Both the position numbers and the translations under genes were made by a program. From contig CAWHXD010000006.1 in NCBI GenBank assembly GCA_963833225.1, forward strand, positions 1 to 64,000: a DNA stretch of 64,000 nucleotides. The letters are read 5' to 3'. The notes under the pieces were generated by a model, which saw only the letters and a list, made by a program, of their open reading frames with translations, was not told the DNA's origin and did not search any database. The DNA is from an uncultured Chloroflexia bacterium (GTDB lineage: Bacteria > Chloroflexota > Limnocylindria > Limnocylindrales > CSP1-4). Each line of letters starts with the position of its first letter. Position 1 is the first letter of the stretch. Of the stretch, positions 13,715 to 64,000 are shown one piece after another.

Positions 13715-15270
13715 CTACACGGCCCGGCGGCGTCGCTCGTGGACCGCGTCGTGGAGCTCGGCAGTGGTGCGGGTCTCGCGCCGTCCTCGCCGCGGGCTCA
13801 CGGGGTGTGCCGCCGCGGCGCGGCGCTCGTCGTGCGCGTGGTCATGCGGGTGATCATGCGCGTGGTCGTGGACATCGGGCTCCCACGGGACCCCGGATGC
13901 AAACACCTCCACGAACATCTCGACCAGCTCCGGATCGAACTGGATACCGGCCTGGCGGCGCAGCTCCGCAAGCGCCTCCTCGTGGGAGATCCGCTCGCGG
14001 TAGGGTCGCCCCGCGATCATGGCCTCGTAGGCATCCACGATCGAGACGATCCGCGCCCCCACGGGGATCTCGGCACCCGCCAGGCCGTGCGGGTAACCGC
14101 GCCCGTCGAACCACTCGTGGTGGTGGAGCACGATCGTCGCCGCGTCGCGCAGGGCACCGGCCTGCTCAAGCACCACCTGGCCGATCTTGGGATGCTCGGT
14201 GACAACGCGCCACTCCGATGCCGCGAGGTCGCCGGGCTTGGCCAGGATCTCGTCGGGGATGGCGAGCTTGCCAAGGTCGTGGAGCAGGCTCGCCGTCCGG
14301 ATGCGCTCAAGCTCGCCCCGCGGCAGGTCGATGGCCCGCGCCAGGGCGACGGACGCCTCCGCGATGAGGGTGGAGGGCTTGCCCGCCCAGGACGCGCGCT
14401 CGGTGAGCGTCCCGAGCAGCGTCTCCTGGGCCGCCATCATCGCGGCGCGACCCACGTCGAGGGCGCGACTCCGGGCCTCGGCCGCGATCGGCGCGCGTCG
14501 GACCGTGCCCTCATCGCCGGTCTCGCGGAACACGTACACCTGGTCCCGGCCAAGCGCCTTGGCCGAGTAGAGCGCCGCGTCGGCATCACGGACCAGCACG
14601 TCCGGCCGGAGGACATGTCCCAAGGCCGCCGGCCACCCCCGCGGACAGCGTCACGGACACCATCTCGCCGTCCGCCAGCTCCACCGACGTGCGGGACATC
14701 ATCTGGCGCAGCTTCTCGGCCACGGCGGCGGCGGCATCGACGTCGGTCTCGGGGAGGACGATCAGGAACTCCTCGCCCCCATAGCGGCCCGCCATGTCCG
14801 TGGCACGAACGTTGGCGGCCAGCAGCCCGCCCACGTGCCGCAGCACGAGGTCGCCGGCGGCGTGACCATGCGAGTCGTTGAGTCGCTTGAAGTGGTCGAG
14901 GTCCACGAGGATCACGCACAGCGGGTGCCGGTAGCGGGCGGCCCGGGCGAGCTCCTCGTCCACGCAGCCCAGGATCGCCTGGCGGTTCGCGATGCCGGTC
15001 AGCGGGTCGACGGTCGCCAGCCGCCAGGTGTCGGCGACCCGGTCGGCAAGCGCACGGAAGGCCGCGCGCAGCCGGGGGTCGCGGATCCGGGCCGCGTCGA
15101 CGGCCACCAGGGCCGCCTCGTCCTGGGCCTTCGTCAGGTCGTTCGGCGAGTGCGCTCACCCGACGGTTCTGGCGGCTGACGCTGAGGGCGGCGAACCCCG
15201 CCGAGCCCGCCAGCGCGCCGGCCAGGGCGATCAGCGTGCCGAGGGCGAGGGCGGAGGTCAGGGGATCCAA
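13715..15270 (-). CDS. GGDEF + HD-GYP tandem protein (frameshifts near 15140 and 14620)
   Basis: N-terminal TM; DPLTGIANR, DLDHFKRLNDSHGHAAGD, RYGGEEF; then LLHDLGK and HHEWFDGRGYPHGLAG; His-rich tail. Confidence 0.88.
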
Positions 15271-15476
15271 GCTGGTACTCGAGCGCAGATGGGCGCCACG
15301 AACGCGGCCATCGTGGAGCGCACCGTCAGGCTAGGGGTCCGCGCGCCGCCGGCCATGGTGCGAAGGTCCCGGTGGCCGCGCACTGACGGGCCGGTTCCCG
15401 TGCGCACCGCGCGGGCAGCGCTCGAGTCATGGCCCGAAAGTCCTGCCCCAGGCTCATCCGCGACCGCCGCCTCGGG

Positions 15477-16264
15477 TCACTCGCCCGCCAGGGCCCTGCG
15501 CCCGGGCCAGCTCCCGCCCGTCGTGATCGGCGAGCCGCCAGGCCCATCCGGGCGCGCCCTCGACCGGGTCCTGCCAGGTGACACCCAGGAGCCTCGCGCC
15601 GGGTGCCGCCGGGGCCAGGTACTCGAGCCGGAGCCGGCGAGGGGTGCCGGCGATGGCGGGGCGGCCCCGGGTCCTGCCGCCGCCAGCGCCTCCTCGAGAT
15701 AGTCGACGTAGGCGGCGTTGTTGACGTGGCCCATCGGGTCAAGGTCCTGCGGCCGGACGGCGGAGCGGTGATGGACCGCGTCCGCCGGGGCGGGCGGCAA
15801 GGGCACCTTGCCGGGCTCGAAGCTCCCGGGCGGGACCTCGAACGCCGCGGGGAACGCCTGGGGGACTCGGCCGGGCAGGCCGCGTCGCGTGTCGGTCATC
15901 ACCCAGTCGGTGTGGCCCCAGAGCACCAGCCGTCCCATCGCCGATCCGCCCTTCCGTCCGCCGTCGGGCCCATACCTTGCGAAACCCCGATGACGGCGGT
16001 GGTCAGGGCGATGGTCTGCGCCCAGGCGGAGCGGCTCGAGGATCGCGAGCTCCACGGCTCGGACGACCCACGCGAGGTCCCGCGTCGCGTACCAGTCACG
16101 GTCGAACCCCATCCGCTCCGAGTGGACCCAGGCAATGTCCTGGGCGTAGCGCAGCAGCGCCGACGTGCGGAGCCAGCCCGTCCGGGCCGCACTCGTCGAA
16201 CCGGATCCGGTAGGGAACGGTGACGCCCCGGACGATCGCGGGGTCCGGACGGGGCAGCGCTCAC
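15477..16264 (-). CDS. acyl-ACP thioesterase-like double hotdog protein (frameshifts)
   Basis: LLRYAQDIAWVHS...WVVR and VRPQDLDPMGHVNNAAYVDYLEE motifs. Confidence 0.8.
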
Positions 16265-16949
16265 GCCGGCTTCCGTCCGGCAAGCCGATCCAGCCCATCG
16301 AGCGCGATGAGCTTGAGGCCCTCGAGGGCGACCGGACCGCGCTCCCGGACGAGCCGGACCTCGCACGAGCGCCGCGCGTCGAAGATGACCAGGCCGACCA
16401 GGAGCCGGGCGCCCTCATCGGCGGCCCCCCGCCGCGCGTCGTCCGAGCTGGTGGAGCACATCGGACTTGATGCCACGGGCACCCCACTTGCAGTCCCAGG
16501 CCTCGCCGGCCCCGTCGCGCTCGACGGTCACGTCGTAGGGATGGATCTCGGCAGGGCGGCCGTCGAACAGGATCCGTCGCTCCCTGCGGACGCGGCGCCG
16601 TGCGCTCGACGAGCAGGCGCTCCGCCAGCGCCTCGACGATCGCGCCCCGGAACTGGCTGCGTGTCTGGTCGCCGCGGTCCGCGACCGACAGGGAGACCGC
16701 GAGGATCCCCTCGGAGCGGTCCCTCACCGGGTCGCCCGGCGACGGCGCCGCCGGACCGAACAGCGTCGGGAACATCGTGCGCCAGGTCGCCGGGTCGAGC
16801 GACTCGCCATTCATGACCGCCCGCGCCAGCAGCCGCTGGACCGTCGTCGCGGCGGCGAGGAGCTCGGCCGCCCGGACGACCAGTGGATCCGCCTGGATAT
16901 GCGCATACACGACCGCCCGGCCATCCGGGCGCGCGTCCATGAACCGCAT
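16261..16949 (-). CDS. hypothetical protein with PD-(D/E)xK nuclease-like motifs (two frameshifts)
   Basis: Stitched translation: FRGAIVEALAERLL...RRERRILFDGRPAEIHPYDVTVERDGAGEAWDCKWGARGIKSDVLHQL..ARLLVGLVIFD. Confidence 0.6.
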
Positions 16950-49363: not shown

Positions 49364-50452
49364 ATGCCGCCCGTCGCCGTCCTCATCCTCGCGCCCGCGC
49401 TCTCGCCCGGTGCGGGCCTGCTCGCGCGCGGCCTCGACGAGGCCCACACGACCCTCGCCGAGCATCACCGGCGGGGGTTCCGCGCGGCCGGCGCGGCCGA
49501 GGTCGTGGTCCGCCGCGAGCCGCCCGACGATACCCCATTCGGGGCACGCCTCCGGCGGCTGGCCGGCGGGCTTCGCCCGGGCGGGCTGGTGGTCCTGGGA
49601 GCCGGGTCGATCCCACTGGCAACGGCGGCCGACCGGCGTGGCCTCGTCGAAGCTGCGGCAGCCGATGCGCCCGGGGCGCTGGTCAACCACCGCTACTCCG
49701 CCGATGTCCTGGCCATCGCCCTGGCACAGACCGCGCTCCGGGACGTGCCGCCGGACCTGCGTTCCGACAACGCCCTTCCCCGCTGGCTCGCCGAGGTGGC
49801 CGGCGTGCCGGTGAGGGACCTGCGAGCGCGGCGCCGACTGGCGATGGACGTGGACTCGCCGCTTGACCTGCTGCTGCTCGAAGGGGCGCGGGGAGCCCCG
49901 GACCTGCCGCTCCCCGGTGACCTCGAGGCGGATCCGGTGCGGGCGCAGCTCGCCCGGCTGCGCGCGCTGGCCCGCGACCCGGGCGCCGAGCTCCTGATCG
50001 CCGGCCGGTCGTCGGCGGCGGACCTGCGCTGGGCGGAGCGCTACACCCGCTGCCGGACCCGGGCCCTGCTCGAGGAGCGGGGGATGCGCACGGCGTCGGC
50101 AGGCGTGGCCGTGGGGCGTCCCAACCGACGTCCGGCGAGAAGCGCTCTTGGGCTGCTCCTGGACACCTCCGAGCCGGGATCGCTGGGGAGAATCGTTGGG
50201 GAGCTGTGCGACGGGGCGCTCATCGACAGCCGCGTCCTCATCGCCCACCGGTACGGCGCCGACGAGGCGGGCTGGCCGGTGCCGGAGGACCGGTTCGCGA
50301 GCGACCTCCTGCTGCCCGATCGGATCCGCGACCCGTGGCTGCGCGACCTCACCACCGCCGCCGCCGAGGCCCAGGTCCCCATCCTGCTCGGCGGGCACAG
50401 CCTCGTGGGGCCGGGGCTGCGGCTCGCGCTCGGGCCACGGGCGCATGGATAG
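49364..50452 (+). CDS. hypothetical protein, possible CofC/nucleotidyltransferase-like fold
   Basis: TPFGARL, VVLGAGSIPL, NHRYSAD, LAMDVDSPLDLLLL; TAGACT -10 seven nt upstream. Confidence 0.6.
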   Translation: MPPVAVLILAPALSPGAGLLARGLDEAHTTLAEHHRRGFRAAGAAEVVVRREPPDDTPFGARLRRLAGGLRPGGLVVLGAGSIPLATAADRRGLVEAAAADAPGALVNHRYSADVLAIALAQTALRDVPPDLRSDNALPRWLAEVAGVPVRDLRARRRLAMDVDSPLDLLLLEGARGAPDLPLPGDLEADPVRAQLARLRALARDPGAELLIAGRSSAADLRWAERYTRCRTRALLEERGMRTASAGVAVGRPNRRPARSALGLLLDTSEPGSLGRIVGELCDGALIDSRVLIAHRYGADEAGWPVPEDRFASDLLLPDRIRDPWLRDLTTAAAEAQVPILLGGHSLVGPGLRLALGPRAHG

Positions 50453-51680
50453 GGACCCGGCGATCGATCCCGCCGAGCCGCCTCTCGCCGTCGCCGGGCA
50501 CCGTCGCCACAGCCTGCCCGATCCCGAGGCCGTCGGCGAGGACGCCGAGCTGCTGGCAGCGATCCGGGCGGAGATCGCCGAGCACGGGCCGATCACCTTC
50601 GCCCGGTTCATGGAGCGGGCCCTCTACGACCCGGGACACGGCTACTACCGCCGTCCGCTGGCCGGCCCCGGGCTGGCCGGCGGCGACTTCCTGACCGCCC
50701 CCGAATCCCATCCGATCTTCGGGGCCGCCCTCGGTCGGCTGGTCGAGGAGGCGTGGCGGGCGATGGGCCGCCCGGCGCCGTTCACGATCACGGAACCGGG
50801 AGCCGGCTCGGGAGCGCTGGCGGCCGGGCTCCTGCGCGGGTTGCGGGACCTGGGCTCGCCGCTGTTCCCAGTCGTTCGCTACCGGCCGGTCGAGGTGGAG
50901 ACGGCGCGTCTCGACACGCTCCGCGAACAGCTCGCGGCCGAAGGCCTCGACGACCACCTGGTGGCCGACCCCGATGAGGCGCCACGCACCGCCGGAGCCG
51001 TGATCGCCAACGAGGTCCTTGATGCGCTGCCCGTCCACCGGGTCGTCACGCGCGGCGGCAGCCTGCACGAGCTGCTGGTCGCGGCCGACACGGACGGGAA
51101 CCTCGTGTGGCACGAGGCGGAGCCCACCACGCCGGCCCTTGCGCGGCGCCTCGCGGCCGAGCAGGTGACGCTCGCCGACGGCGAGGTCACGGAGGTCTGC
51201 CTGGCGCTCGACCGCTGGCTCGCCGAGACAACGGCGCTCGTTTGGCGCGGCGTCGTGATCGTGGTCGACTACGCGGCCGAGCCCGGCGAGCTCCACGGGG
51301 CGTCGCACCCCACGGGGACGCTCCGCACGTTCGCGCGGCACGCCGTTGGCGCCGACCCGTTCCGGCATCTCGGGCGGCAGGACCTCACCGCAACCGTGGA
51401 TCTCGCGGCTGTCAGGCTTGCCGCGGCGGCCGCCGGCCTGACCCCGATCGGCGAGACGACCCAGGCGGAGCTGCTGGCACGGGTCGCCACGAGCGACCTC
51501 ACGGACACCTACGTCCGCCGCCCGGGCGCCACGCTCCAGGACGCGCTCGATCTCCGCTCGGCGGTCGCCCGGCTGATGGACCCACGCGGGATGGGGGGGT
51601 TCCGGGTCATGGTGTTCGGCGAGGGGCTGGACGAGCCGCTGTCGCTGCCGTCGCTCTCCCCGGTCCGCCGCCCGGGCTGA
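50445..51680 (+). CDS. MidA/NDUFAF7-family SAM-dependent methyltransferase
   Basis: GPITFARFMERALYDPGHGYY, DFLTAPE, EPGAGSG, ANEVLDALPV, DY, QDLTATVD. Confidence 0.9.
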   Translation: MDRDPAIDPAEPPLAVAGHRRHSLPDPEAVGEDAELLAAIRAEIAEHGPITFARFMERALYDPGHGYYRRPLAGPGLAGGDFLTAPESHPIFGAALGRLVEEAWRAMGRPAPFTITEPGAGSGALAAGLLRGLRDLGSPLFPVVRYRPVEVETARLDTLREQLAAEGLDDHLVADPDEAPRTAGAVIANEVLDALPVHRVVTRGGSLHELLVAADTDGNLVWHEAEPTTPALARRLAAEQVTLADGEVTEVCLALDRWLAETTALVWRGVVIVVDYAAEPGELHGASHPTGTLRTFARHAVGADPFRHLGRQDLTATVDLAAVRLAAAAAGLTPIGETTQAELLARVATSDLTDTYVRRPGATLQDALDLRSAVARLMDPRGMGGFRVMVFGEGLDEPLSLPSLSPVRRPG

Positions 51681-51842: not shown

Positions 51843-52214
51843 GTGACCGGGATCTGGTACGTCGTCGGGTTCGTTTTCGCCGGCACCCTGTTCGTCTTCG
51901 GGACGATCGGGCTCGCTTGGCTGATCTCCCACCGCACCCGTGGAGACGAGCACAAGGGCTACCCCTACGAGTCGGGCATCGACACCTACGGTGACACCCA
52001 CGCCCGCTTCGGCATCAGCTTCTACATCTACGCCCTGATGTTCGTCGCCTTCGACATCGAGGTGATCTTCATCTTCCTGTGGGCCTTGATCTTCACGAAC
52101 CCTGACCTGCCGCTCACCCCGGCCGCCCTGTTCATCACGATGCTGATCTTCGTGGGCATCCTGCTGTTCGGGCTCGCGTATGCCTGGCGCAAGGGGGTCC
52201 TGACGTGGCGATGA
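51843..52214 (+). CDS. nuoA: complex I subunit A
   Basis: [32 protein letters not shown]; TAGAAT -10 at 51781. Confidence 0.95.
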
Positions 52215-52969
52215 CCCCCGACGGACCGGAGACGGTCGGGGGCCTGGGCGTCGAGCCGGGCGACGGCACCCAGGCTCGGTCGGACCAGCCCGGGCGGGAT
52301 TCCGCGGCGCTGGTCACCCCGGCCGCCAGGGACGTGATGGCCCCCATCGTCGTGGCCAACACGCTGTGGACGTCGGACAGCCCCGGCGCGTATGCGAGCA
52401 CGGCCCCCGCCTACACGCACCTGGAGGCATTCCACAAGGGCGACCTCGAGCTCGCGGACACCGCGCGCTGGGGTGCGCTCGAGGTGATCCCGACCAAGGC
52501 GGACCTGATCGTCGACCTGATCCGGATGAACAGCCTGTGGCCGCTGCTCTCGGGCCTGGCCTGCTGCGCCATCGAGATGATGTCCGCGGCCACCTCCAAG
52601 AACGACATGGACCGCTGGGGCATGTTCCCGTTCCGCGCCAGCCCCCGCCAGGCCGATGTGCTGATCGTGGCCGGCACGCTCACCACCAAGATGGCCGGGC
52701 CGCTGGTCCGCCTCTGGGAGCAGATGCCGGAGCCCAAGTGGTGCGTCGCGATGGGCGACTGCACCTGCTCGGGCGGCCGCTACAAGCGCAGCTACTCCAC
52801 CATCGAGGGCATCGACCGGGTGATGCCCGTCGACGTCTACGTGCCGGGCTGCCCGCCCCGTCCCGAGGGTCTCATCTACGGGATGATGAAGCTGGGCCAG
52901 CTGGTCAAGGAACGCCGCGGCCACTGGCCGGACCGGCCCATCGGGCCCAACGTGCCGACGGACGTCTAG
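52211..52969 (+). CDS. nuoB: complex I subunit B
   Basis: [37 protein letters not shown]. Confidence 0.97.
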
Positions 52970-52971
52970 CC

Positions 52972-53520
52972 ATGGACCGATCGCTGCGTGCACGCCTCGA
53001 GAAGCGCTTTGCGGACAAGGTCACGGGACCCGTCCGGCAGCGCCACGACGAGACCGAGCTCCGGATCGGCGCCGCGGACCTGACCGAGGTCATGACGGCC
53101 CTCCACGACGAGCCGGACCTGGACTTCGGGGTCCTCGCCGACCTCGCGGGCGTGGACACAGGCGCCCACATGCAGGTCGTGTACCACGTGTGGTCCGCGA
53201 AGACGCCGGACTGGCTGCGCGTGATCGCGGACGGCCTGCCGCGCGACAACCCGCGGATCGCGACCCTCACCGGCCTGTGGCCGGGCGCGGAGTGGATGGA
53301 GCGCGAGACCTACGACATGTTCGGGATCATCTTCGAGGGCAACCGCGACCTGCGGCGGATCTACATGCCCCCCGATTACACGAGCTTCCCGCTGCGCAAG
53401 GACTTCCTCCTGCCGGACGACGCGGCGCGGTCACCGGGGGGTGGCGTCCGGCACGTGGAGCGGGCGCCTGCCTCCACGCAGGCAACCGATCCCGCCGCCC
53501 ATCGCACGGTGAAGGCGTAG
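52972..53520 (+). CDS. nuoC: complex I subunit C
   Basis: DLAGVD, WMERETYDMFGI.FEG..DLRRI, FPLRKDF. Confidence 0.96.
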   Translation: MDRSLRARLEKRFADKVTGPVRQRHDETELRIGAADLTEVMTALHDEPDLDFGVLADLAGVDTGAHMQVVYHVWSAKTPDWLRVIADGLPRDNPRIATLTGLWPGAEWMERETYDMFGIIFEGNRDLRRIYMPPDYTSFPLRKDFLLPDDAARSPGGGVRHVERAPASTQATDPAAHRTVKA

Positions 53521-53522
53521 CC

Positions 53523-54767
53523 GTGACCACCTTTGGCGAGCCCATCGGCCAGCACGCGTCGGCGGACGACCCACGGATCATGCTGGACAACCAGATCGGG
53601 GCGTTCGAGCAGGTCCCGCCCTACCCGCCGCGCACCGAGCGCGAGGCCGAGTTCTACTCGCTCCGCGACGGCGAGATGTTCGTCAACATGGGCCCCCAGC
53701 ACCCGTCGACCCACGGCGTGCTCCGCGTCGTGCTCAAGATCAACGGCGAGCAGGTGGTGGACCTGGACCCGGTGCTGGGCTATCTCCACCGGGGCGTGGA
53801 GAAGCTGTGCGAGAACAGCGACTACCACCACATCATCAGCCAGGTCGACCCCCTCGAGTACGTGAGCTCGCTGTTCAACGAGTGGGCGCCAGTGATGGCG
53901 TTCGAGAAGCTGCTCGACGTGGAGGTCCCGCGGCGGGCCGAGTACATCCGCGTGCTCACGGGCGAGCTCCTCCGGGTCAGCAGCCACGCCCTGTTCCAGG
54001 GCTGGATGGCGCTCGACCTCGGCGGCCTCACGCCGATCCTGTACAGCTTCATCGAGCGCGACGAGATCGTGGAGATGCTGGCGGCGATCACCGGCCAGCG
54101 GATGCTGTTCAACTACTTCCGGATCGGCGGCGTGAACGGCGACCTCAACCACGAGTTCATGTCCCGCCTCGGTGACTGGATGAGCCGGGCCGCCGTGCAG
54201 CACGAGGCGAACATCGGGCTGCTCAACGAGAACGAGATCTTCGTCCGGCGCATGCGCGGCATCGGCCGGGTGGACGGCGACACCGCGCTGCGGATGGTCG
54301 TCACCGGACCCAACCTGCGCGCCTCCGGCGTGCCATACGACGTCCGCCGCGCGCATCCGTACAGCGTGTACCCGGAGCTGGACTTCGACATTCCGGTCCG
54401 GGGCACCGGCCCCGAGGGCGGCGATTCGCTGGACCGCTACCTGCTCCGGCTCGACGAGGTCAAGCAGAGCCTGCGGATCATCGACCAGTGCCTCCACAAC
54501 ATGCCCGACGGGCCGATCATGGCCCGCCTGCCGCGCCTGCTCCGCCCTCGACCGGGTCGCGCCTGGGCGGCCGTCGAGGCTCCGCGTGGCCTGTACGGCA
54601 CCTACGCGATCAGTGACGGCACGGACCAGCCGTTCCGGATGAAGATCCACGACCCGTCGTTCGTCAACCTGCAGCTCGTCGGGATGCTCATGAAGGGCAA
54701 CCTGCTCGCGGACACGATGGCCGTGATGGCGAGCCTGGACCCGGTCATGGGCGGGATCGACAAGTGA
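53523..54767 (+). CDS. nuoD: complex I subunit D
   Basis: NMGPQHPSTHGVLR, GYLHRGVEK, EAPRG, SLDPVMGGIDK; no NiFe CxxC motifs. Confidence 0.97.
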   Translation: MTTFGEPIGQHASADDPRIMLDNQIGAFEQVPPYPPRTEREAEFYSLRDGEMFVNMGPQHPSTHGVLRVVLKINGEQVVDLDPVLGYLHRGVEKLCENSDYHHIISQVDPLEYVSSLFNEWAPVMAFEKLLDVEVPRRAEYIRVLTGELLRVSSHALFQGWMALDLGGLTPILYSFIERDEIVEMLAAITGQRMLFNYFRIGGVNGDLNHEFMSRLGDWMSRAAVQHEANIGLLNENEIFVRRMRGIGRVDGDTALRMVVTGPNLRASGVPYDVRRAHPYSVYPELDFDIPVRGTGPEGGDSLDRYLLRLDEVKQSLRIIDQCLHNMPDGPIMARLPRLLRPRPGRAWAAVEAPRGLYGTYAISDGTDQPFRMKIHDPSFVNLQLVGMLMKGNLLADTMAVMASLDPVMGGIDK

Positions 54768-56197
54768 CCGCGCTCAACCGCTCGCTGGGCAGCCTGACGA
54801 CCGTCGGCAAGGTCGTCATCCCGCTGCTGCTGCTGGTGTTCGTGGTCGGGCCGATCCTGACCGTGCTCGGCGCGATCTACGTGCTGCCGGTCGTGGTCGA
54901 CATCGTGGGCTCGAACCTGGGCATCGTCCGGTTCGTGGTCGCGATCACGGCGATCCTGCTGTTCAGCATCCCGGCCGCGTTCATCATCATCTACATGGAG
55001 CTGAAGGTCATCGCCTTCATGAACCTCCGCGTCGGCCCGGACCGGGTTGGCCCCAAGGGTGCCGCCCATTCGCTGGTCGCGGGCCTCAAGGTGCTGACCA
55101 AGGAGGACTTCAGCCCGGCCAACGCGGACCGCCTGGTGTTCACCTGGGCGCCCGTGATCGTGTTCCTGACCGCGGTGATGACGTTCATGGTCATCCCGTT
55201 CGGACCGGGGCTCGTGAACCCCGAGACGGGCCGCATGGAGGGCCTGGTCGGCCAGGACTTCAACATCGGGCTGCTGTACCTGTTCGCGGTGGGCGGCATG
55301 ACCGTGATCGGCCTGCTGCTCGCCGGCTGGTCCAGCTTCAACAAGTACTCGCTCCTCGGGGGCCTCCGCTCGGCGGCGCAGGCGGTCTCGTACGAGATCC
55401 CGCTCACGCTGTCCGTGGTCGGGCTGATCCTGCTGGCGGGCACGATGAGCGTCACCGGGATCGCCCAGCAGCAGGGAGGCTGGTTCGCCAACTGGTTCGT
55501 CTTCCGGCAGCCGCTGGGTGCGCTGATCTTCTTCATCGCCGCCACCGCTGAGGCGAACCGGACCCCGTTCGACCTGACCGAGGCGGACTCCGAGATCGTC
55601 GCCGGGTTCGCGACCGAGTACTCCGGGATGCGCTTCGGCTTCCTGTTCTTCGCCGAGTACGTGAACGTGTTCATCGTCTCGGCCCTGATCGTGACCCTGT
55701 TCTTCGGGTCGTGGAACGCCCCGGTGGACCTCAACTCGCTGCTCGCCTGGATCAACCCGTCACTGCAGAGCTGGTTCGGCTTCACGCTGCTGCCACCCAC
55801 GGTGGCCCTCGACCCGGGCAGCCTGGGGATGGGCCTGCTGCTGCTGGCCCTGGCCGCCCCGGTGGTCCTGACGCTGGTGTTCGCCGTGCCGTTCTACCTG
55901 CTTCGCACCTCGCGGCCCGGGTGGCAGGCGCTGCTGTTCGGGTTCGTCCTGTTCAACGTCGTCGCCGGCGGGGCGGCGTTCACCCTGGCCTGGATCGGCT
56001 GGGACTGGGTCGCCGGCCTGGTGTGGTTCATGATCAAGTCGTTCATCTTCGTGTTCGTGTTCGTGTGGATGCGCGGCACGTTCCCGCGAGTCAGGATCGA
56101 TCACCTGATGGGCTTTGCGTGGAAGTGGCTGCTGCCGGCCGCGCTCCTCAACCTGTTCCTGACCGCCGCGGCGATCGTCGTGGTGAAGAGCCTGTGA
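54764..56197 (+). CDS. nuoH: complex I subunit H (long form)
   Basis: RVGPDRVGP, KYSLLGGLRSAAQAVSYE, NRTPFDLTEADSEIVAGFATEYSG, RGTFPRVR. Confidence 0.95.
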   Translation: MTALNRSLGSLTTVGKVVIPLLLLVFVVGPILTVLGAIYVLPVVVDIVGSNLGIVRFVVAITAILLFSIPAAFIIIYMELKVIAFMNLRVGPDRVGPKGAAHSLVAGLKVLTKEDFSPANADRLVFTWAPVIVFLTAVMTFMVIPFGPGLVNPETGRMEGLVGQDFNIGLLYLFAVGGMTVIGLLLAGWSSFNKYSLLGGLRSAAQAVSYEIPLTLSVVGLILLAGTMSVTGIAQQQGGWFANWFVFRQPLGALIFFIAATAEANRTPFDLTEADSEIVAGFATEYSGMRFGFLFFAEYVNVFIVSALIVTLFFGSWNAPVDLNSLLAWINPSLQSWFGFTLLPPTVALDPGSLGMGLLLLALAAPVVLTLVFAVPFYLLRTSRPGWQALLFGFVLFNVVAGGAAFTLAWIGWDWVAGLVWFMIKSFIFVFVFVWMRGTFPRVRIDHLMGFAWKWLLPAALLNLFLTAAAIVVVKSL

Positions 56198-56204
56198 GCA
56201 TTCG

Positions 56205-56864
56205 ATGACAGCCATCCCCGGCATGGGCCTCGTGCGCGGCATGGGACTGACCCTGCGGCGGTTCTTTGCCCCCAAGGCCACCATCAAGTGGCCCGAGCAG
56301 CACGCCGATGTCGCCCCCAAGTTCCGCGGCCGGCTGCAGCTGCTCTACGACGAGCACGGCACGCTCAAGTGCGAGACGTGCTTCCAGTGCGCGCAGGCCT
56401 GCCCCATCGAGTGCATCGACATGGGCGGGGTGGACACCAAGGGCCGGTTCCACGTCCACTGGGGCCCCCCCGAGACCTACGGCGAGCGCCGCGAGGAGTC
56501 CGCGATCCGCCGCTCCGGGCGCCCGGTGGCCGACACGGCGTACGAGCGCTTCGAGGGCATCGACCTCCAGCCGCTGGACGTGATCCTGGAGGCACACGAC
56601 TACGACCCCAGGGCGATGCTGGCGATCCTGGAGGAGACCCAGGCCGAGTACGGCTACCTGCCCGTCGCCGCCCTCAAGCACATCTCCCGGGTCACGGGCG
56701 CGTGGTACGCGATGATTTACGGGACCGCGACCTACTACCGACACCTGCGGTTCGAGCCGCCCGCGGTGGAGGCGCCCGCCGCCGGCACCGCACAGGTCGC
56801 CGCCGAGGCCGCCTTCCGCTCCGCGCTCGACGCCTCCCTTGGCTACGGGGGGCACGCGAACTAG
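56205..56864 (+). CDS. fusion: NuoI N-terminal half (one CxxCxxCxxxCP) + NuoE N-terminal helical domain (no 2Fe-2S domain)
   Basis: GMGLTLRRFF..KATIKWPE...KFRGRLQL...KCETCFQCAQACP, then LAILEETQAEYGYLP..AL..IS....IYGTATYY.HLRFEP; single intact ORF. Confidence 0.85.
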   Translation: MTAIPGMGLVRGMGLTLRRFFAPKATIKWPEQHADVAPKFRGRLQLLYDEHGTLKCETCFQCAQACPIECIDMGGVDTKGRFHVHWGPPETYGERREESAIRRSGRPVADTAYERFEGIDLQPLDVILEAHDYDPRAMLAILEETQAEYGYLPVAALKHISRVTGAWYAMIYGTATYYRHLRFEPPAVEAPAAGTAQVAAEAAFRSALDASLGYGGHAN

Positions 56865-56865
56865 G

Positions 56866-58206
56866 ATGACCGACTTCCTCACGACTCCCGCGGGCTGGCC
56901 GAGCGTCCTCCTGGCACGCGCGGCGCAGCTGGCCGCGGATCCGATGGACCTCGACGCCGCGGTGCGAGCCGGCGCGTTCGAGGGCCTCCGGAAGGCCGTG
57001 CGCGATCTGGGTGGAACCGGCACCATCGCGACGCTCGCCGCCGCCGGGCTCCGGGGTCACGGCGGCGCCGGCTTCCCCACCGCCGAGAAGTGGCGTGCGG
57101 CCGCCGGGCAGCCCGCGGCCCAGCGCTACGTCATCGCCAACGGCTACGGGGCGGATCCCGCCGTTCACACCGACCAGGCGCTGCTCGCCGCGGACCCGTG
57201 GAGCGTCATCGAGGGCCTCGCGATCGCCGCCTTCTCGATCGGCGCGACGGAGGCGATCCTCGCGGTCCGTGCCGACGATCCGTCGCTCGTGACGATGCTC
57301 GAGGGGGCTGTCCTCGCGGCCGAGGAGGCGGGCTTCCTGGGCGAGGATGCCGCGGGCTCCGGCCACCCGATCAGGATGACCGTGCGGCCCGTCCAGGGTG
57401 CCTACATGCTGGGCGAGGAGACGGTCCTGATCAAGGCGCTCGAGGGCAGGCGCGGCCAGCCGGACCAGCGGCCGCCGTACCCCACCGAGAAGGGCCTGTT
57501 CGACAAGCCGACTGTCGTCAACAACGTCGGGACGCTGGCCGCGGTCCCGTGGATCGTGGTCAACGGCGGCGAGGCGTACGCGGCCATCGGGTCGGCATCC
57601 AACGCCGGCACCGCGCTCGTCCAGCTCCGCGGCCCGGCCGGCGCGGGCATCGCCGAGATCCCGTTCGGGACTCCGCTCCGTGCCCTCGTTGATCTCGTCG
57701 GGGGCGCCGGCAAACGGACGCTCAAGGCGATCCTCGTGGGTGGACCGACGGGGGGCCTCCTGCCAGCCGACCTCCTGGACACGCCCTACGAGTTCGACGC
57801 GCTGCGGGAGGCCGGCGCCCACGTTGGCTCCGGGTCCGTGGTCATCGCCGACGACCGGGCCTGCATCGTGGACCTCGCCCGGCTGCTCACGCAGTTCTCC
57901 GCCGACGCCGCCTGCGGCAAGTCCATCCCGTGCCGCATCGGCCTGCGCCGCCTGTACGAGATCGGCGACCGGATGACGAGCGGCGTGGCCAGGCCCACCG
58001 ACCCGGCGCTCCTGGTGGACCTCGCCCACGACATCACCGCGTCCGCCCTGTGCGACCACGAGCGCCTGGCCACCCGGCCGTTCGCCAGCGCGATGCGATA
58101 CTTCCGTCCCGAGCTCGATGACCACCTCCTTCGCTCCATCTGCCCGGCCGGCGTGTGCACGCCGATCGCGGTGGGTGCCGGTGCGACCGCAGCAGGATCC
58201 CGCTGA
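56866..58206 (+). CDS. NuoF/HydB-like flavoprotein with degenerate motifs
   Basis: LRGHGGAGFPT..KW, GAYMLGEET, PPYP..KGLF.KPTVVNNV, GGPTGG, CGKSIPCRIG, H...ICPAGVC. Confidence 0.9.
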   Translation: MTDFLTTPAGWPSVLLARAAQLAADPMDLDAAVRAGAFEGLRKAVRDLGGTGTIATLAAAGLRGHGGAGFPTAEKWRAAAGQPAAQRYVIANGYGADPAVHTDQALLAADPWSVIEGLAIAAFSIGATEAILAVRADDPSLVTMLEGAVLAAEEAGFLGEDAAGSGHPIRMTVRPVQGAYMLGEETVLIKALEGRRGQPDQRPPYPTEKGLFDKPTVVNNVGTLAAVPWIVVNGGEAYAAIGSASNAGTALVQLRGPAGAGIAEIPFGTPLRALVDLVGGAGKRTLKAILVGGPTGGLLPADLLDTPYEFDALREAGAHVGSGSVVIADDRACIVDLARLLTQFSADAACGKSIPCRIGLRRLYEIGDRMTSGVARPTDPALLVDLAHDITASALCDHERLATRPFASAMRYFRPELDDHLLRSICPAGVCTPIAVGAGATAAGSR

Positions 58207-60917
58207 TGGCCGACCTCATCATCCGCCCCGAGGACGCCGAGACCCCGGACAGCGCGCCCGTGCCCGAGAACAGCCCGGCCGCCTACGAGCGCCTTCGCGA
58301 GGTCCGCCCGGACGCAAAGCTGCCCGCCGGCTGGGACACGATCACGCCTCGCGAGGACACCCTCGCCGAGCGCCTGATCACGACCCAGAGCCCGCAGCGG
58401 CCGCAGAGCACGCCGCGGATCCGGCTGGAGGTCGACGGCCGCGTCGTCGAGGGCTTCGAGGGCCAGACGATCCTCGAGGTCTGTCGCGACAACGGGATCG
58501 AGATCCCCACCCTGTGCTACGAGCCCAAGCTCCCGGGCTTCGGTGCCTGCCGGATGTGCGTGGTCGAGGTGGAGGGCGAGGAGCAGCCGCCGATCTCCTG
58601 CTCCCGCGTCGCCGAGCCGGAGATGAAGGTCCAGACGCAGACCGACGAGCTGCGCCGGCTCCGGAAGACCAGCCTCGAGCTGATCTTCTCGGACCACAAC
58701 GCCTACTGCCTGCCGCCATGCCAGAACAAGTGCCCCAGCCACATCGACATCCCGGGCTTCCTCAAGGCCAACGCCGAGGCCAGCTGGACGGAGTCGGTGC
58801 GGATCTTCAAGCGCACGATCCCGTTCCCCAGCGTGCTCGGCCGCGTCTGCCCCGCCCCGTGCGAGGAGCACTGCCGGCGGGACGAGGTGGACGAGGCGAT
58901 CGCCATCCGCGACAGCCACCGCTACGCGGGCGACCAGGTCATCAAGGCGATGCTCGACGATGGCGTCGATCCGCCGCTGCCGTTCGAGAAGCAGGCTCCG
59001 TCCGGCCGCCGCGCCGCCGTGATCGGGTCCGGCCCGGCCGGCATGAGCGCCGCGTACTACCTGCTGCTCGCCGGCCACGACGTGACCGTGTTCGAGCGCG
59101 ACCCGGCCCCGGGCGGCATGCTCCGCTACGGCATCCCGCAGTACCGCCTGCCCAAGGTCGAGGTCCTCGAGGCGGAGTACGAGTCCGTCACCCGGCTCGG
59201 CGGCAAGATGCGCTGCAACATGGAGCTGGGCAAGGACTTCACGCTCGACGACCTCCAGCACCAGGGGTTCGACAGCGTCGTCATCGCCATCGGCTGCTAC
59301 GACACCAACAAGCTGGGCATCCCCGGACGAGGACGCCGACGGCGTCATCGACGGCCTGGAGTACCTGCGCACGGCCACGCTGGGCCTGCCGTACCCGGGC
59401 CACGAGGGCACCCGGGTGGTCGTCGTGGGCGGCGGCTTCACCGCGATGGACTGCGTCCGCACCTCGGTCCGCCAGGGCGCAGGCGAGGTCACGCTCGTCT
59501 ACCGCCGCGACATGAAGGACATGCCGGCGGCCTCGGAGGTTCACGAGGCGATCGAGGAGGGCGTCACCGCCATCTTCCAGGCCGGGCCGACGCGCGTCAT
59601 CAAGGACGAGGAGACCGGCAAGACCACGGGCGTCGAGTTCATCCGGATGAAGCTCGGCGAGCCCGACGCGTCCGGCCGGCGCCGCCCCGAGCCGGCGGCC
59701 GGCACCGAGTTCACGATCCCCTGCGACCGCGTCCTGCTGGCCATCGGCCAGGGACCGGACCTGCGCCTGGTTCGGCCCCGGCAACGAGGGCCTGAGCGCC
59801 ACCCGGAACCGCCGGCTCCAGGCCGATGCGGTCACGTTCGAGACCGGCCGCCCGGGCGTGTTCGCGACCGGCGACGTCCGGATCGGCGCCGCGACCGTGG
59901 TCCAGGCCATCGCGGAGGGACGGCGGGCCGCCTACGCCGTGGATGCCTACCTGAAAGGCAACGACCTGTCGGCGATCCGGACCCGCCAGACCCTCGCCGA
60001 GCCGCAGCCGGAGTTCCTCTCCATCGTGCCGTTCACGGGCGAGATCAAGGAGCCCCGCTACCGGCTGAAGGCGCTGGAGGCGGAGGAGCGCAACCACAGC
60101 TACACCGAGTACGAGATCCCGTACACCCGCGACGAGGCCGTCGCGGAGTCCACCCGCTGCCTCCAGTGCACCTGCGAGGCGATCGGGTTCTGCGACCTGC
60201 GCCGGCTGGGGATCGAGTACGGGACGACGCTCAAGACCCTGGAGAAGACCTTCCACCAGGGGGCCGGGTACCGCTCGGTGACCGAGAACCGGTTCACCGG
60301 CGTCAACCACGACTACGTCCGGGACGACTCGCACGCGTTCATCCTGCGCGAGCCCTCCCGGTGCATCGACTGCGGCCGCTGCGCCAACGTCTGCGCGGAG
60401 GTCGTGGGTGCCGCCTGCTACGACTTCATGCGGATCGGCTTCGACACCCTGGTGACGACGCCGCTCGACATGAGCCTCAACGACACGCCCTGCGTGTCCT
60501 GCGGCCGCTGCGCGGAGACGTGCCCCACGGGCGCGCTGATGCCCAAGCCGCGCGTCCTCCAGAAGTACGAGGTCGACGAGAGCCGCTGCATCCTGTGCGG
60601 CATCTGCGTCGACGCCTGCCCCTATGACGCCGTCCGCGACAGCGACCAGTTCGAGCTCAGCCACACGTCCCGCGAGGAGCCAGAAATCGACCTCCTCGCG
60701 CTGGCCTCGATCGAGCGCGAGACGGAGATGAGCTACATCCGCCGCGAGCGGGACTGGGCGGAGCGTGCACGGGCCGAGGGCCGGATCCTCGACGATGCCC
60801 GGCTGCTCCCCGTCCTTCCCGCCTCGCTCGCGGGCGGACGCGGGGAATGGGAACGGGAACGGGAACGGCGCCCGGCTGGGTGCCGGGAACGGGGCCGGCC
60901 ACGCCAACGACGGCTGA
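58206..60917 (+). CDS. NuoG-N Fe-S domains with inserted GltD/NfnB-like FAD-NADPH module, fused to NuoI C-terminal half (indels near 59325, 59765, 60840)
   Basis: IPTLC...GACRMCVVE...SC; PCQNKCP, LGRVCPAPCEEHCRR; VIGSGPAG; GGGFTAMD...VYRR; RCIDCGRC, CVSCGRCAETCPTGAL; KYEVDESRCILCGICVDACP. Confidence 0.85.
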
Positions 60918-60926
60918 GAGGGACGC

Positions 60927-61473
60927 GTGACGCTGCCAGAGACGATCCCGCTGCTCGGGCTCGGATGGAATGACCTGCTGTTCCTGACCTTCGCGGGCAT
61001 CATGGTCGGGTCGGCGCTGCTGGTCGTCCTGATGCGGGACATCATCCGCTGCGGCCTGGCCATGATCATCTGCTTCGCCGCGCTGGCCGGGCTGTACGTG
61101 TTCGCCGGTGCCACGGTCGTCGCCGCGGCCCAGGTGCTGGTCTACATCGGCGCGATCAGCGTGCTCGTCCTGTTCGCGATCATGCTGACCCAGACCAAGT
61201 CCGGCCCCGCCTCGCTGGTGTTCCAGACCCAGGCCTTCCCGGCAGCGATCGCGGCCGCGGTGCTCGCGATGCTGATCGCGGTCGTGGTCGCGGCGACCGA
61301 CTGGCCGGGCTGGCCATCGCTCGGCAGGCTGGTCGAGAGCTCCGCCGCGGACGTGGCCAACAGGCTGTTCGCCAAGTTCATGCTCCCGTTCGAGGTGGTC
61401 AGCGTCCTGCTCCTCGCGGCGGTCATCGGCGGGGTGTTCATCGCCAAGCGCGAGCGGGGAGGTGAGCGACTGA
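60927..61473 (+). CDS. nuoJ: complex I subunit J
   Basis: AAQVLVYIGAISVLVLFAIML, LPFEVVSVLLLAAVIG; reads through into nuoK in this sequence. Confidence 0.93.
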
Positions 61474-61805
61474 TGCTCGCCTTCCTCGACAACATCTCCG
61501 CGAGCCTCGACGCGTACCTCGTCCTGTCGGGCCTGCTGTTCGCGATCGGGTCGTTCGGGTTCCTCGCCCGCCGGAACGCGATCTCGATGCTGATGTCCAT
61601 CGAGCTCATGCTCAACGCGGTCAACCTCGCGGTCATCTCGTTCGGCGCGTTCACCCTCAAGCTCAACGTGGACGCATCCGTCATCGCGCTCATCGTCATG
61701 GCGTCCGCGGCCGCGGAGGCGACGGTTGGCCTGGCGCTCGTGATCGCGATCTTCCGCAACAAGAAGACGCCGCTCGTCGACGAGTACGACGCGATGAGCC
61801 AGTAG
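61473..61805 (+). CDS. nuoK: complex I subunit K
   Basis: RBS GGAGGTGA; RRNAISMLMSIELMLNAVN, AAAEATVGLAL. Confidence 0.95.
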   Translation: MLAFLDNISASLDAYLVLSGLLFAIGSFGFLARRNAISMLMSIELMLNAVNLAVISFGAFTLKLNVDASVIALIVMASAAAEATVGLALVIAIFRNKKTPLVDEYDAMSQ

Positions 61806-61817
61806 GCGGGGATCGAG

Positions 61818-63816
61818 ATGTACGAGACGCTGATCCCGCTCATCCCGCTGCTCCCCATCCTGGGCTTCGCCTTCACGGCCCTGTTCGGGCGACGGCTGCA
61901 GCTCCGCTTCGGGCGCACCGCGGCGGAGATCGTGCCCCTGGCGCTCGTCGCGGCGTCATGGGTGATCGCGATGGTCGTCGTGGTGCCGGCGCTCACCCAC
62001 GCCGAGCCGTTCGGCGAGCACGGCCTGGACGTCAATCTCTGGACCTGGATCCCGGCCGGCGACTTCACGGTCCAGATGGGCTTCCACGTCGACGCCCTCA
62101 CCGCCGCCCTGCTGATCGTGGTGACCACGATCGGGATGCTGGTCCACCTGTACTCGGTCGGGTACATGGCCCACGACAAGGGCACCTGGCGGTTCTTCGC
62201 CTACCTCAACCTGTTCATGTTCTCGATGCTCCTGCTGGTGCTGGCCAACAACTGGCTGCTCGTGTTCGCCGGCTGGGAGCTGGTCGGCCTGTCCTCGTAC
62301 AGCCTGATCGGGTTCTGGTACCACAAGCGCTCGGCCGCCCTGGCCGCCAAGAAGGCGTTCATCGTCAACCGCGTGGGCGACGTGGGCTTCGCGCTCGGGA
62401 TCATGGCCATCTTCGTCAACACCGGGACGATGAACATCCAGGACTCGCTGGCGAAGCTGACCACGTGAGGGCGCCTCGTTCCCGATCCCGGTCACGATCG
62501 TCGCGCTGCTGGTGTTCGCGGGCGCCATGGGCAAGAGCGCCCAGTTCCCGCTCCACGTCTGGCTGCCGGACGCGATGGAGGGCCCCACCCCGGTGTCCGC
62601 CCTCATCCACGCGGCGACGATGGTCAACGCCGGCGTCTACCTCGTCGCCCGCGCCAACCCGCTGTTCGCCCACGCGTCGGACGCGATGGTCGTGGTGGCG
62701 GCGATCGGGATCTTCACCGCGATCCTCGCCGCCTCGATCGCGTTCACGCAGACCGACATCAAGCGCGTGCTCGCGTACTCGACGCTGTCCCAGCTGGGCT
62801 ACATGTTCGCCGCCCTCGGCGTGGGCGCCTACACGGCGGCGATCTTCCACCTCATGACCCACGGCTTCTTCAAGGGCCTGCTGTTCCTGGGGTCCGGCTC
62901 GGTGATCCACGCGGTCCACGAGGAGCAGGACATGAACCGGATGGGCGGCCTGTGGCGGAAGATCCCGATCACCCACTGGACGATGCTCGTCGGCTCGATC
63001 GCCATCGCGGGCATCCCGCCCCTGGCGGGCTTCTTCTCCAAGGACGAGATCCTGGGCGAGGCGTTCAAGTTCGGCTTCACCTGGGTCTGGCTCATCGGCC
63101 TCGTGGTCGCGGGCATGACGGCGTTCTACATGTGGCGCCTGATGGGCAAGACGTTCTACGGCGAGTCCCGCGTGGACCCGCACACCGAGCCCAAGGTCCA
63201 CGAGTCGGCCTGGCAGATGACGGTGCCGCTGATCCTGCTGGCGATCCCGGCCGCCCTGCTGGGTCTGGCGCTCACCTGGGGTGGTCTGCCGCTCACCCGG
63301 AGGGCACGGGGCTGCTGACCGGCTGGCTCGAGCCCGTGTTCGCGGCGTCCGAGGAACATCTGCACGGCGCCAAGGAGGCCTACCAGCTGTTCGGCGCCAT
63401 CGACGGCGTCCTGATCATCGCCAGCGTGGCGGTGGCCACCATCGGGCTGGTCGTCGGCTGGGCCCTGTTCGGCTTCTTCAACCGACGCGGCCGACAGGCG
63501 ACCGTGGACGGCATCGTCGCCTCCAACGGGGCCACCCGGTTCCTGTACCGCGCCACCCTCAACAAGTGGTGGTTCGACGAGATCAACGACCTGCTGTTCA
63601 TCCGGATCGGCGGACGCGTCGCCGCCGATCCTGTGGTGGTTCGACCGCACCATCGTCGATGGCACCGTCAACGGGGTGGGCACCGTCGTCCGCGGCGCGG
63701 GCGGCGGGCTGCGGCAGATCCAGACCGGCCGCGTCCAGAACTACGCGCTGGGCATCGCGATCGGCCTGCTGGTGATGGCCGGCTCGTTCCTGCTGATCGT
63801 GGGGCAGTCCCGATGA
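61818..63816 (+). CDS. nuoL: complex I subunit L (frameshifts near 62465, 63300, 63630)
   Basis: [69 protein letters not shown]. Confidence 0.95.
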
Positions 63817-64000
63817 CCGGCCTCGACGGGCTGCCGCTCGTGACCCTGGTGACCTTCCTGCCGGCGCTCGGCGCGCTCGCCGTCGCCATCACGCCGACGT
63901 CCCGGCCGAACGTCGCGCGCTACACGGCGCTGGGGTTCGCGCTGGCGGCATGGGTCGTCTCGCTGGTGATGCTGGCCGGGTTTGACGCCACTGCGGCCGC
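63813..64000 (+). CDS. nuoM: complex I subunit M, 5' part only
   Basis: ATGA overlap with nuoL; LPLVTLVTFLPALGALAV first helix; operon position. Confidence 0.8.
   Translation, partial: MTGLDGLPLVTLVTFLPALGALAVAITPTSRPNVARYTALGFALAAWVVSLVMLAGFDATAA

Follow-up and report, generated by a model that had tools for sequence, protein, structure and literature searches.

A split NuoI and an NfnA/StnC-like subunit in the complex I operon of Limnocylindria: a probable NADPH-fed proton pump

What feeds electrons into a respiratory complex I whose NuoG position is occupied by a subunit of the NfnA/StnC type? The question is raised by a nuo operon in a 64,000-nucleotide stretch of DNA (contig CAWHXD010000006.1, positions 1 to 64,000 of the forward strand, assembly GCA_963833225.1; hereafter the window) from an uncultured bacterium of the class Limnocylindria, in the phylum Chloroflexota. 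Three unusual genes lie there between nuoH and nuoJ, and the subunit NuoI is divided between the first and the third of them. This split-NuoI variant of complex I is real, class-wide and apparently undescribed. The complex is probably a proton-pumping oxidoreductase fed by PntAB that transfers electrons from reduced nicotinamide adenine dinucleotide phosphate (NADPH) to quinone; its preference for NADPH, its assembly with the membrane arm and the direction of electron flow are deduced from sequence. No description of a split NuoI or of this gene cassette was found in the literature covered by the search, outside which lay subscription papers and supplements. The main text of a study on this clade (PMC13212565) mentions neither NADH (the non-phosphorylated counterpart of NADPH) nor nuo nor transhydrogenase. 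Many Chloroflexi are recorded, in the accessible text of PMC4453560, as having 13 of the 14 complex I subunits, with NuoG missing.

The division of NuoI is seen directly with the family model TIGR01971, of which positions 1-65 match the start of the open reading frame (ORF) at 56205-56864 and positions 74-113 match the C-terminal end of the protein in the NuoG position (the G-like subunit). The two halves cover complementary parts of the model, and both NuoI cluster motifs are present, in two chains. The N-half sits two genes upstream of the G-like gene and is fused to a remnant of NuoE, with an altered NuoF between; in other words, nuoI encloses the NuoE-F-G-like cassette, and each of its halves is joined to a cassette gene. 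A profile search returned relatives named Candidatus Limnocylindrales/Limnocylindria or uncultured Chloroflexota, and 60 Limnocylindria loci, chosen for long contigs and covering all five families, were examined. The G-like gene runs through the NuoI C-half as one open frame in 57 of the 60, one of the others being cut by a contig end and two being frameshifted, and a match to the C-terminal part was obtained in all 151 class genomes searched. An unsplit NuoI was detected in only 8 of 251 class genomes (seven of them above the cut-off), and the two unsplit-nuoI operons retrieved from the class are canonical nuoA-N. Family f3 has the operon in two complementary places in 3/3 genomes, B-D-cassette in one and (A)-C-H-J-K-L-M-(N) without nuoI in the other. 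Outside the class the junction occurs in 42 of 355 genomes, nearly all in families f10, f25 and f29; 19 of the 20 loci retrieved consist of B-cassette alone and one of A-B-C-D-H-cassette. Two such genomes were checked, and each has a separate A-C-D-H locus without nuoI as well as a second, unsplit nuoI, a canonical operon being shown for one. When the NuoI N-half was modelled in complex with the part holding the ferredoxin and the NuoI C-half, the score was 0.25 against a mark of 0.32, a result that counts neither for nor against the pairing.

The remainder of the operon is that of an ordinary complex I. NuoA, B, C, D, H, J, K, L, M and N are all present in the usual order, so that the window reads A, B, C, D, H, the three unusual genes, J, K and L on the + strand, with nuoM and nuoN extending past the window to end at C6:66918. 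Both the quinone module (B, C, D, I) and the membrane arm (A, H, J, K, L, M, N) that characterise the respiratory complex I superfamily are there, NuoI as two halves, and what is absent is the single-chain NuoI with a NuoEFG NADH module of the canonical 14-subunit enzyme. The NuoD translation contains no Ni-binding CxxC motifs, as a Group 4 [NiFe] hydrogenase would have. The features are as follows.

51843..52214, + strand: nuoA (PF00507)
52205..52969, + strand: nuoB, with N2-type CC..C..CPP ligands (TIGR01957 above cut-off; translation)
52972..53520, + strand: nuoC, start approximate (PF00329)
53523..54767, + strand: nuoD, quinone-site subunit, start approximate (PF00346; NF004739 above cut-off)
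54764..56197, + strand: nuoH (PF00146)
56205..56864, + strand: fusion of the NuoI N-half (CETCFQCAQACP, 56370-56405) with a NuoE/BfuC N-terminal helical domain (TIGR01971 positions 1-65; PF01257 positions 3-63; PDB NuoI and NfnC matches)
56866..58206, + strand: NuoF/BfuB-like subunit with altered flavin loop (domain searches, alignments)
58206..60917, + strand: NfnA/StnC-like subunit in the NuoG position, with the NuoI C-half (Pfam, PDB matches, alignment of relatives)
58713..60157, + strand: GltD/NfnB-type insert with GGGFT..D and YRR (alignment)
60554..60730, + strand: NuoI C-half (RCILCGICVDACP..FEL) at the end of the G-like subunit (TIGR01971 positions 74-113, best family)
60927..61805, + strand: nuoJ and nuoK, one ORF in the window (PF00499, PF00420)
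61818..63775, + strand: nuoL, in pieces (PF00662, PF00361)
63717..64000, + strand: start of nuoM (tblastn with a relative's NuoM and NuoN)

The stop codon of the NuoF-like gene overlaps the start of the G-like gene at 58206; at loci L034 and L036 no stop codon separates the two, which may there encode one fused protein. Directly upstream of nuoA (window 50148-51680) is an ORF with a GGDFLTAPE-type motif, presumably akin to the complex I methyltransferase MidA/NDUFAF7, and a similar ORF lies beside the cassette in family f3 (L071:7662-9017).

The G-like subunit comprises 902 residues once three +1 insertions are discounted, and its domains run in the order 2Fe-2S, half of the N5 site, a GltD-type domain for flavin adenine dinucleotide (FAD) and NADP(H), the other N5 half, a 2x[4Fe-4S] ferredoxin and the NuoI C-half. 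Pfam recognises Fer2_4, Fer4_20, Pyr_redox_2 and Fer4_Nqo3 and no molybdopterin family, in agreement with an earlier note on this DNA, which had placed an StnC/Nfn-like protein without a molybdopterin-like domain at the NuoG position. The motifs cited in its favour are all where they should be: the 2Fe-2S domain (PTLC..SC, 58506-58601), the N5 motif interrupted by the GltD block (HNAYC at 58695-58709, then PCQNKCP at 58716-58736), GRVCPAPCEEHC (58839-58874), the FAD site GSGPAG (59025-59042), GGGFTAMD (59428-59451) with VYRR (59497-59508), and the resumed NuoG-type clusters in CLQCTCEAIGFC (60158-60193), RCIDCGRC (from 60359) and CVSCGRCAETCP (60491-60526). The note ended the gene too early, at 60550; the frame starts at 58206 and runs to a stop at 60915-60917, and the note had thereby overlooked the NuoI C-half (RCILCGICVDACP..FELSHTSR, 60584-60673). 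The proposed link to the membrane complex is strengthened, since the protein carries half of NuoI.

The nested architecture of StnC type, likewise claimed earlier, is borne out by the nearest solved structures, which belong to the soluble NADPH transhydrogenases: 9bov_A (E=2e-159), 9n5u_A and 8oh5_C (NfnA of Caldicellulosiruptor and Thermococcus and StnC of Sporomusa), at 35-39% identity. All 12 best PDB sequence matches are Nfn/Stn, glutamate synthase or dihydropyrimidine dehydrogenase flavoproteins, and the G-like subunit has the GltD domain nested in a NuoG-type Fe-S scaffold that is expected of an NfnA/StnC subunit. The cluster ligands are all invariant in the 57 intact relatives aligned, so the motif pattern is not a product of chance. 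In the numbering of L032, and with ligands assigned to clusters by analogy, these are C36/47/50/64 for the 2Fe-2S cluster; H96, C100, C588 and C594, split by the GltD insert, for the His-ligated cluster; C104, C108, C147, C151, C155, C583 and C586 together with H170 for the GltD clusters; C651-C704 for the ferredoxin; and C726-C736 for the NuoI half. YRR and Arg239 are invariant in the same 57. A YRR after the second Rossmann fold marks NADP(H) preference, and it is common to the G-like subunit and the solved NADPH enzymes. StnC holds the NADPH site of its complex and requires Arg239 for activity (PMC10482914, in the text available).

The rear of the protein is where it departs from its soluble relatives. 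The FdhF-like C-terminal domain, present in the full-length StnC-like proteins P0085 and P0125, is absent, and the fused NuoI half follows the motif of the second ferredoxin cluster at a distance of about 12 residues, that cluster being the equivalent of A4 on a side branch. The clusters of StnC beyond the main chain are described, in the portion consulted of PMC10482914, as a non-functional branch, and the A4 cluster of the FeFe-Bfu hydrogenase as a port to the catalytic domain (PMC9304861, likewise in part). The phylogeny that the earlier note had called for was built as a quick tree, in which all NuoI-C-bearing proteins group apart from the full-length StnC-like ones (SH-aLRT 94); long branches join the PorB-fused rows and one row is badly trimmed, and the tree is used for this grouping only. 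A single-chain model of an intact relative is confident for the 2Fe-2S and GltD parts only (mean predicted local distance difference test score 62.5, residues 586-783 below 50), so no cluster distances can be read from it.

Several variants of the subunit were encountered along the way. In P0041, P0032, P0033, P0155 and P0158, a G-like subunit with a NuoI-like tail is fused to the beta subunit of pyruvate:ferredoxin oxidoreductase (PorB); both full-length proteins in the alignment no longer have the GGG and YRR motifs and have kept His170, which suggests that their electron source is pyruvate, not NADPH. P0019 has the NuoI-like tail without YRR. P0160 is named from a metagenome-assembled genome of Actinomycetes, and the cluster of a related fragment bears an actinobacterial name, so that the cassette may extend outside the phylum Chloroflexota. 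The G-like gene is present as two tandem copies in two genomes from outside the class (L180, at G359:C1:904000-923900, and G178:C38).

The other two subunits of the cassette are altered in ways that bear on NADH. The 2Fe-2S domain of NuoE is missing from the window protein and none of 56 relatives retains all four NuoE ligands, which are those of the [2Fe-2S] cluster C1 in BfuC. The NuoF-like protein, 447 residues long, aligns to residues 113-526 of the 584-residue NfnB; it has neither an N-terminal thioredoxin domain nor a C-terminal ferredoxin, and no Fer4 family was matched in it, leaving it without the B3, B4 (C-terminal ferredoxin) and B5 clusters of BfuB. In the window NADEGDP is replaced by NGYGADP and one N3 cysteine is lost (CGKSIPC), with the His/Cys of the B2 site retained. 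Not one of 56 sequences keeps the Asp of the NADE loop, the Glu that follows survives in 7/56, and the flavin-loop Asp has become Tyr in 39/56 class sequences and in the four outside-class sequences compared; a bulky residue conserved in this way may have a function and need not reflect decay. The Cys of CGEE is replaced in 57/57, and of the 38 sequences from families f1, f2 and f4, 37 no longer have the second N3 Cys. By comparison, the acidic loop and the cysteines are retained in three of the four NuoF paralogues of the window genome. Entry of NADH at the NuoF-like subunit thus appears weakened, with the flavin site itself ambiguous. The interpretation in the earlier note, NADPH entry into complex I, is supported as a whole, and this second possible entry is what it had left unweighed.

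Under the proposed mechanism, the GltD domain would accept a hydride from NADPH at its FAD. The electrons would then travel through the pair of GltD clusters, the N5-type cluster with its His ligand and both ferredoxin clusters before reaching those of NuoI, which the half-chains would build jointly, and would continue to N2 and quinone. Because the NuoI half is fused straight behind the second ferredoxin cluster, the side branch would now serve as the exit to NuoI, and the NuoE and NuoF remnants would mainly be a scaffold holding the NuoI N-half. PntAB has a stoichiometry of one proton and complex I of four. PntAB would turn NADH into NADPH at the expense of one proton and the complex would pump up to four, for a net gain of about three per NADH. 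The in-cell potentials reported are -280 mV for NADH and -370 mV for NADPH (PMC10482914), and that of menaquinone is -74 mV (PMC9304861), both as given in the passages available; the two-electron span to menaquinone calculated from them is about 410 meV from NADH and about 590 meV from NADPH. The second of these sources, in the same portion, points out that the energy from reducing menaquinone may fall short of what four protons cost. A bolder version, to which a little less than an even chance is given, would make this a class-wide two-step gear, in which PntAB is followed by an NADPH-only complex I working through the two-chain NuoI and a formerly dead-end Stn cluster, the protons being pumped back with gain.

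The cassette resembles known systems without coinciding with any. With NfnABC (Nfn-Bfu)/StnABC (PDB 9bov, 9n5u, 8oh5) it shares the nested order of the A subunit, Arg239 and YRR, and the B and C homologues as neighbouring genes; it differs in having the NuoI C-half in place of the FdhF-like C-domain, His for Lys170, a B subunit without B3/B4/B5, a C subunit without C1 and fused to the NuoI N-half, and its location within a full nuo operon. Unlike canonical complex I (NuoA-N), it has no true NuoG (93 bits against a TIGR01973 cut-off of 470), no true NuoF (317 against 559) and a NuoE without N1a, and it has gained an FAD/NADP(H) domain and a NuoI in two chains. For Geobacter SfrAB and other loosely attached input modules of 11-subunit complex I, an NADPH-oxidising GltD-like flavoprotein has been suggested as the electron donor of the complex I core; there NuoI is intact and the module is a protein of its own, whereas here the link is made by gene fusion. 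The predicted Nuo-Bfu (PMC9304861) also has a Bfu-type module replacing NuoEFG in the middle of a nuo cluster, with menaquinone as its proposed acceptor; it has a full bifurcating BC core using NADH and ferredoxin, lacks an Nfn-type A subunit and is reported for other phyla, and the part of that paper available mentions no split NuoI.

A cell in which the cassette enzyme is the sole complex I would need to convert NADH into NADPH, and the distribution of PntB fits this. PntB is present in 231 of the 251 class genomes and is missing from none of the 10 that measure about 1.2 Mb, and its occurrence tracks nuoI: 229 of the 243 genomes without an unsplit nuoI have it, compared with 2 of the 8 with one (Fisher p 3e-6, overstated by kinship), which is to say that it is missing in 6/8 and 14/243, respectively. 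Only three genomes at least 90% complete lack PntB, two of these with an unsplit nuoI. These class tallies include seven genomes marked unpublished (G087, G091, G106, G123, G506, G593, G604; none among the 8), the data of which need permission to be published. Among 355 other Chloroflexota, PntB was found in 91; the three families there that carry the cassette have it in only 3 of 44 genomes, and an unsplit nuoI was present in 11 of the 12 cassette-bearing genomes tested. In the window genome the nuo operon is the only one, and no canonical nuoEFG was found elsewhere in it, a check that the earlier note had proposed. The other NuoF-like genes were rejected as candidates, as they adjoin a Hox-type hydrogenase (C17) or formate-dehydrogenase-like genes (C7) or stand alone (C19). 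The first of these is a HoxU-containing NAD-linked NiFe hydrogenase cluster (G000:C17:310000-314100), and the second comprises two formate-dehydrogenase-like clusters with NuoE/F-like genes (G000:C7:196000-207300), one followed by a GltD-like domain. The same genome holds two haem-copper oxidase subunit I genes (C19:221763, C17:175311), such oxidases being found in 5/5 genomes tested, and two copies of menB above the cut-off (G000:C4:10519, C7:426091). A search for NDH-2 (PF22366) gave matches in 55 of 101 and none in the window genome, and, as it detected only 2 of 14 control genomes, is uninformative on absence.

Several observations weigh against an NADPH-fed enzyme dependent on PntAB. The six genomes with an unsplit nuoI and no PntB belong to one family and three genera, four are 74-82% complete, and in two of them (G548 and G121) the cassette junction was not found. 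PntB accompanies the unsplit nuoI in three of the 11 outside genomes that have one, and it is common in other Chloroflexota families without the cassette (f24 12/12, f9 15/17). menB is above the cut-off in only 2 of 5 genomes tested, so that menaquinone is no more than a candidate for the quinone of the class. His replaces the conserved Lys170 of StnC in 57/57 (DSH, 58911-58925), the lysine being kept in the StnC-like controls compared and listed with Cys108, 147 and 151 as a ligand of the FAD-proximal cluster of NfnA in the text seen of PMC11829005. The NuoF-like subunit, moreover, keeps the NADH contacts named in that same text for C. saccharolyticus NfnB, Lys164 in 54/54, Glu274 in 57/57 and Phe/Tyr159 in 51/54, and all four N3 cysteines are kept in 20/20 sequences of family f3. 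Such residues are what a dual input would call for, with NADPH entering at the FAD of the G-like subunit, NADH at the flavin mononucleotide of the NuoF-like one, both feeding NuoI, and the head perhaps acting as a non-bifurcating transhydrogenase. The GxGGxGF loop and the aromatic residue at 294 are also largely kept, N3 is complete in the four outside-class sequences compared, and the NuoF-like gene is present in every locus that reached its position. That arrangement is nevertheless judged rather unlikely, given the replacement throughout of the NADE loop and the CGEE cysteine and the loss of an N3 ligand in f1, f2 and f4; nor would it predict that PntB is lost where an unsplit nuoI is gained.

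An NADP(H)-specific complex might instead run mainly in reverse, reducing NADP+ from quinol at the expense of the proton motive force. This would best suit lineages with a canonical complex I and no PntAB, and the outside families, which mostly lack PntB and have an unsplit nuoI, come close to that description, so that the cassette could there replace PntAB as the source of NADPH. It is improbable for most Limnocylindria, where the cassette enzyme is the sole complex I found and PntB is present, which would make a second, costly source of NADPH redundant, and where the haem-copper oxidases suit forward respiration. Descent from NfnABC/Stn and the His/Cys pair of the B2 site, kept in 52 of 58 sequences from f1-f4, would allow an electron-bifurcating enzyme of the Nuo-Bfu kind coupling NADPH, NAD+, ferredoxin and quinone. 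Bifurcation is stated to require C1 of BfuC and the ferredoxin and thioredoxin domains of BfuB (PMC10482914, PMC9304861, in the sections available), and deletion of the C1-equivalent cluster abolishes it in Stn (PMC10482914, likewise). With the C1 ligands absent in 56/56 and the ferredoxin-binding domains lost, bifurcation is very improbable, and the complex does not qualify as a Bfu member.

It might finally be argued that the G-like gene of this strain is a decaying pseudogene, since it contains three frameshifts and more are found in nuoJ/K and nuoL, while rpoB and rpoC on another contig are intact. The three indels that the earlier note had recorded are indeed there, near 59325, 59766 and 60842, each a single added base. 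Alignment of the DNA to five relatives finds the first two as extra in 5/5 comparisons and the third as a clean +1 in 3/5, with a larger gap against the other two; the nuoJ/K ORF has a single extra base near 61460 relative to 3/5 relatives, and nuoL has extra bases near 62467 and 63627. Frame changes were tallied against 77 predicted proteins of one relative, and of the 13 in the window 4 without net shift were dropped, leaving 9, of which 5 fall outside the nuo operon, for 31.6 kb of coding DNA, compared with 3 in about 41 kb elsewhere. Further single-base frameshifts are seen in unrelated genes at window 14600-16600 and 33998. The first 64 kb of the contig is error-rich, and other pseudogene calls there are suspect. 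Two environmental contigs, about 98% identical, lack the extra base at 59766; two RNA runs gave contigs over 30 and 27 of the 30 bins, which is no demonstration of transcription. The best-matching public run contained no more than 0.30 of the words of the window. As rpoB and rpoC are intact elsewhere, the errors are regional, and the breaks are likely assembly errors. Decay, which the earlier note had named as one outcome that would undo its claim, is hardly credible for a gene with intact ligands, no in-frame stops and open relatives, in a genome where no other complex I was found.

Annotation pipelines label the cassette genes as formate dehydrogenase or glutamate synthase, labels that hide the pathway. 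Complex I is regarded as an NADH-fuelled enzyme, NADPH being assigned to biosynthesis. If the NADPH-fed enzyme proposed here is correct, nature would have produced an NADPH-specific complex I in which electrons reach the quinone module by a new route, and such an enzyme would provide a natural model for driving proton pumps with NADPH. How input modules come to be exchanged on the 11-subunit core is a long-standing question in the evolution of complex I, and the split NuoI illustrates a way. An NADPH-fed sole complex I in a class widespread in soil and freshwater would alter the manner in which these cells keep their redox balance.

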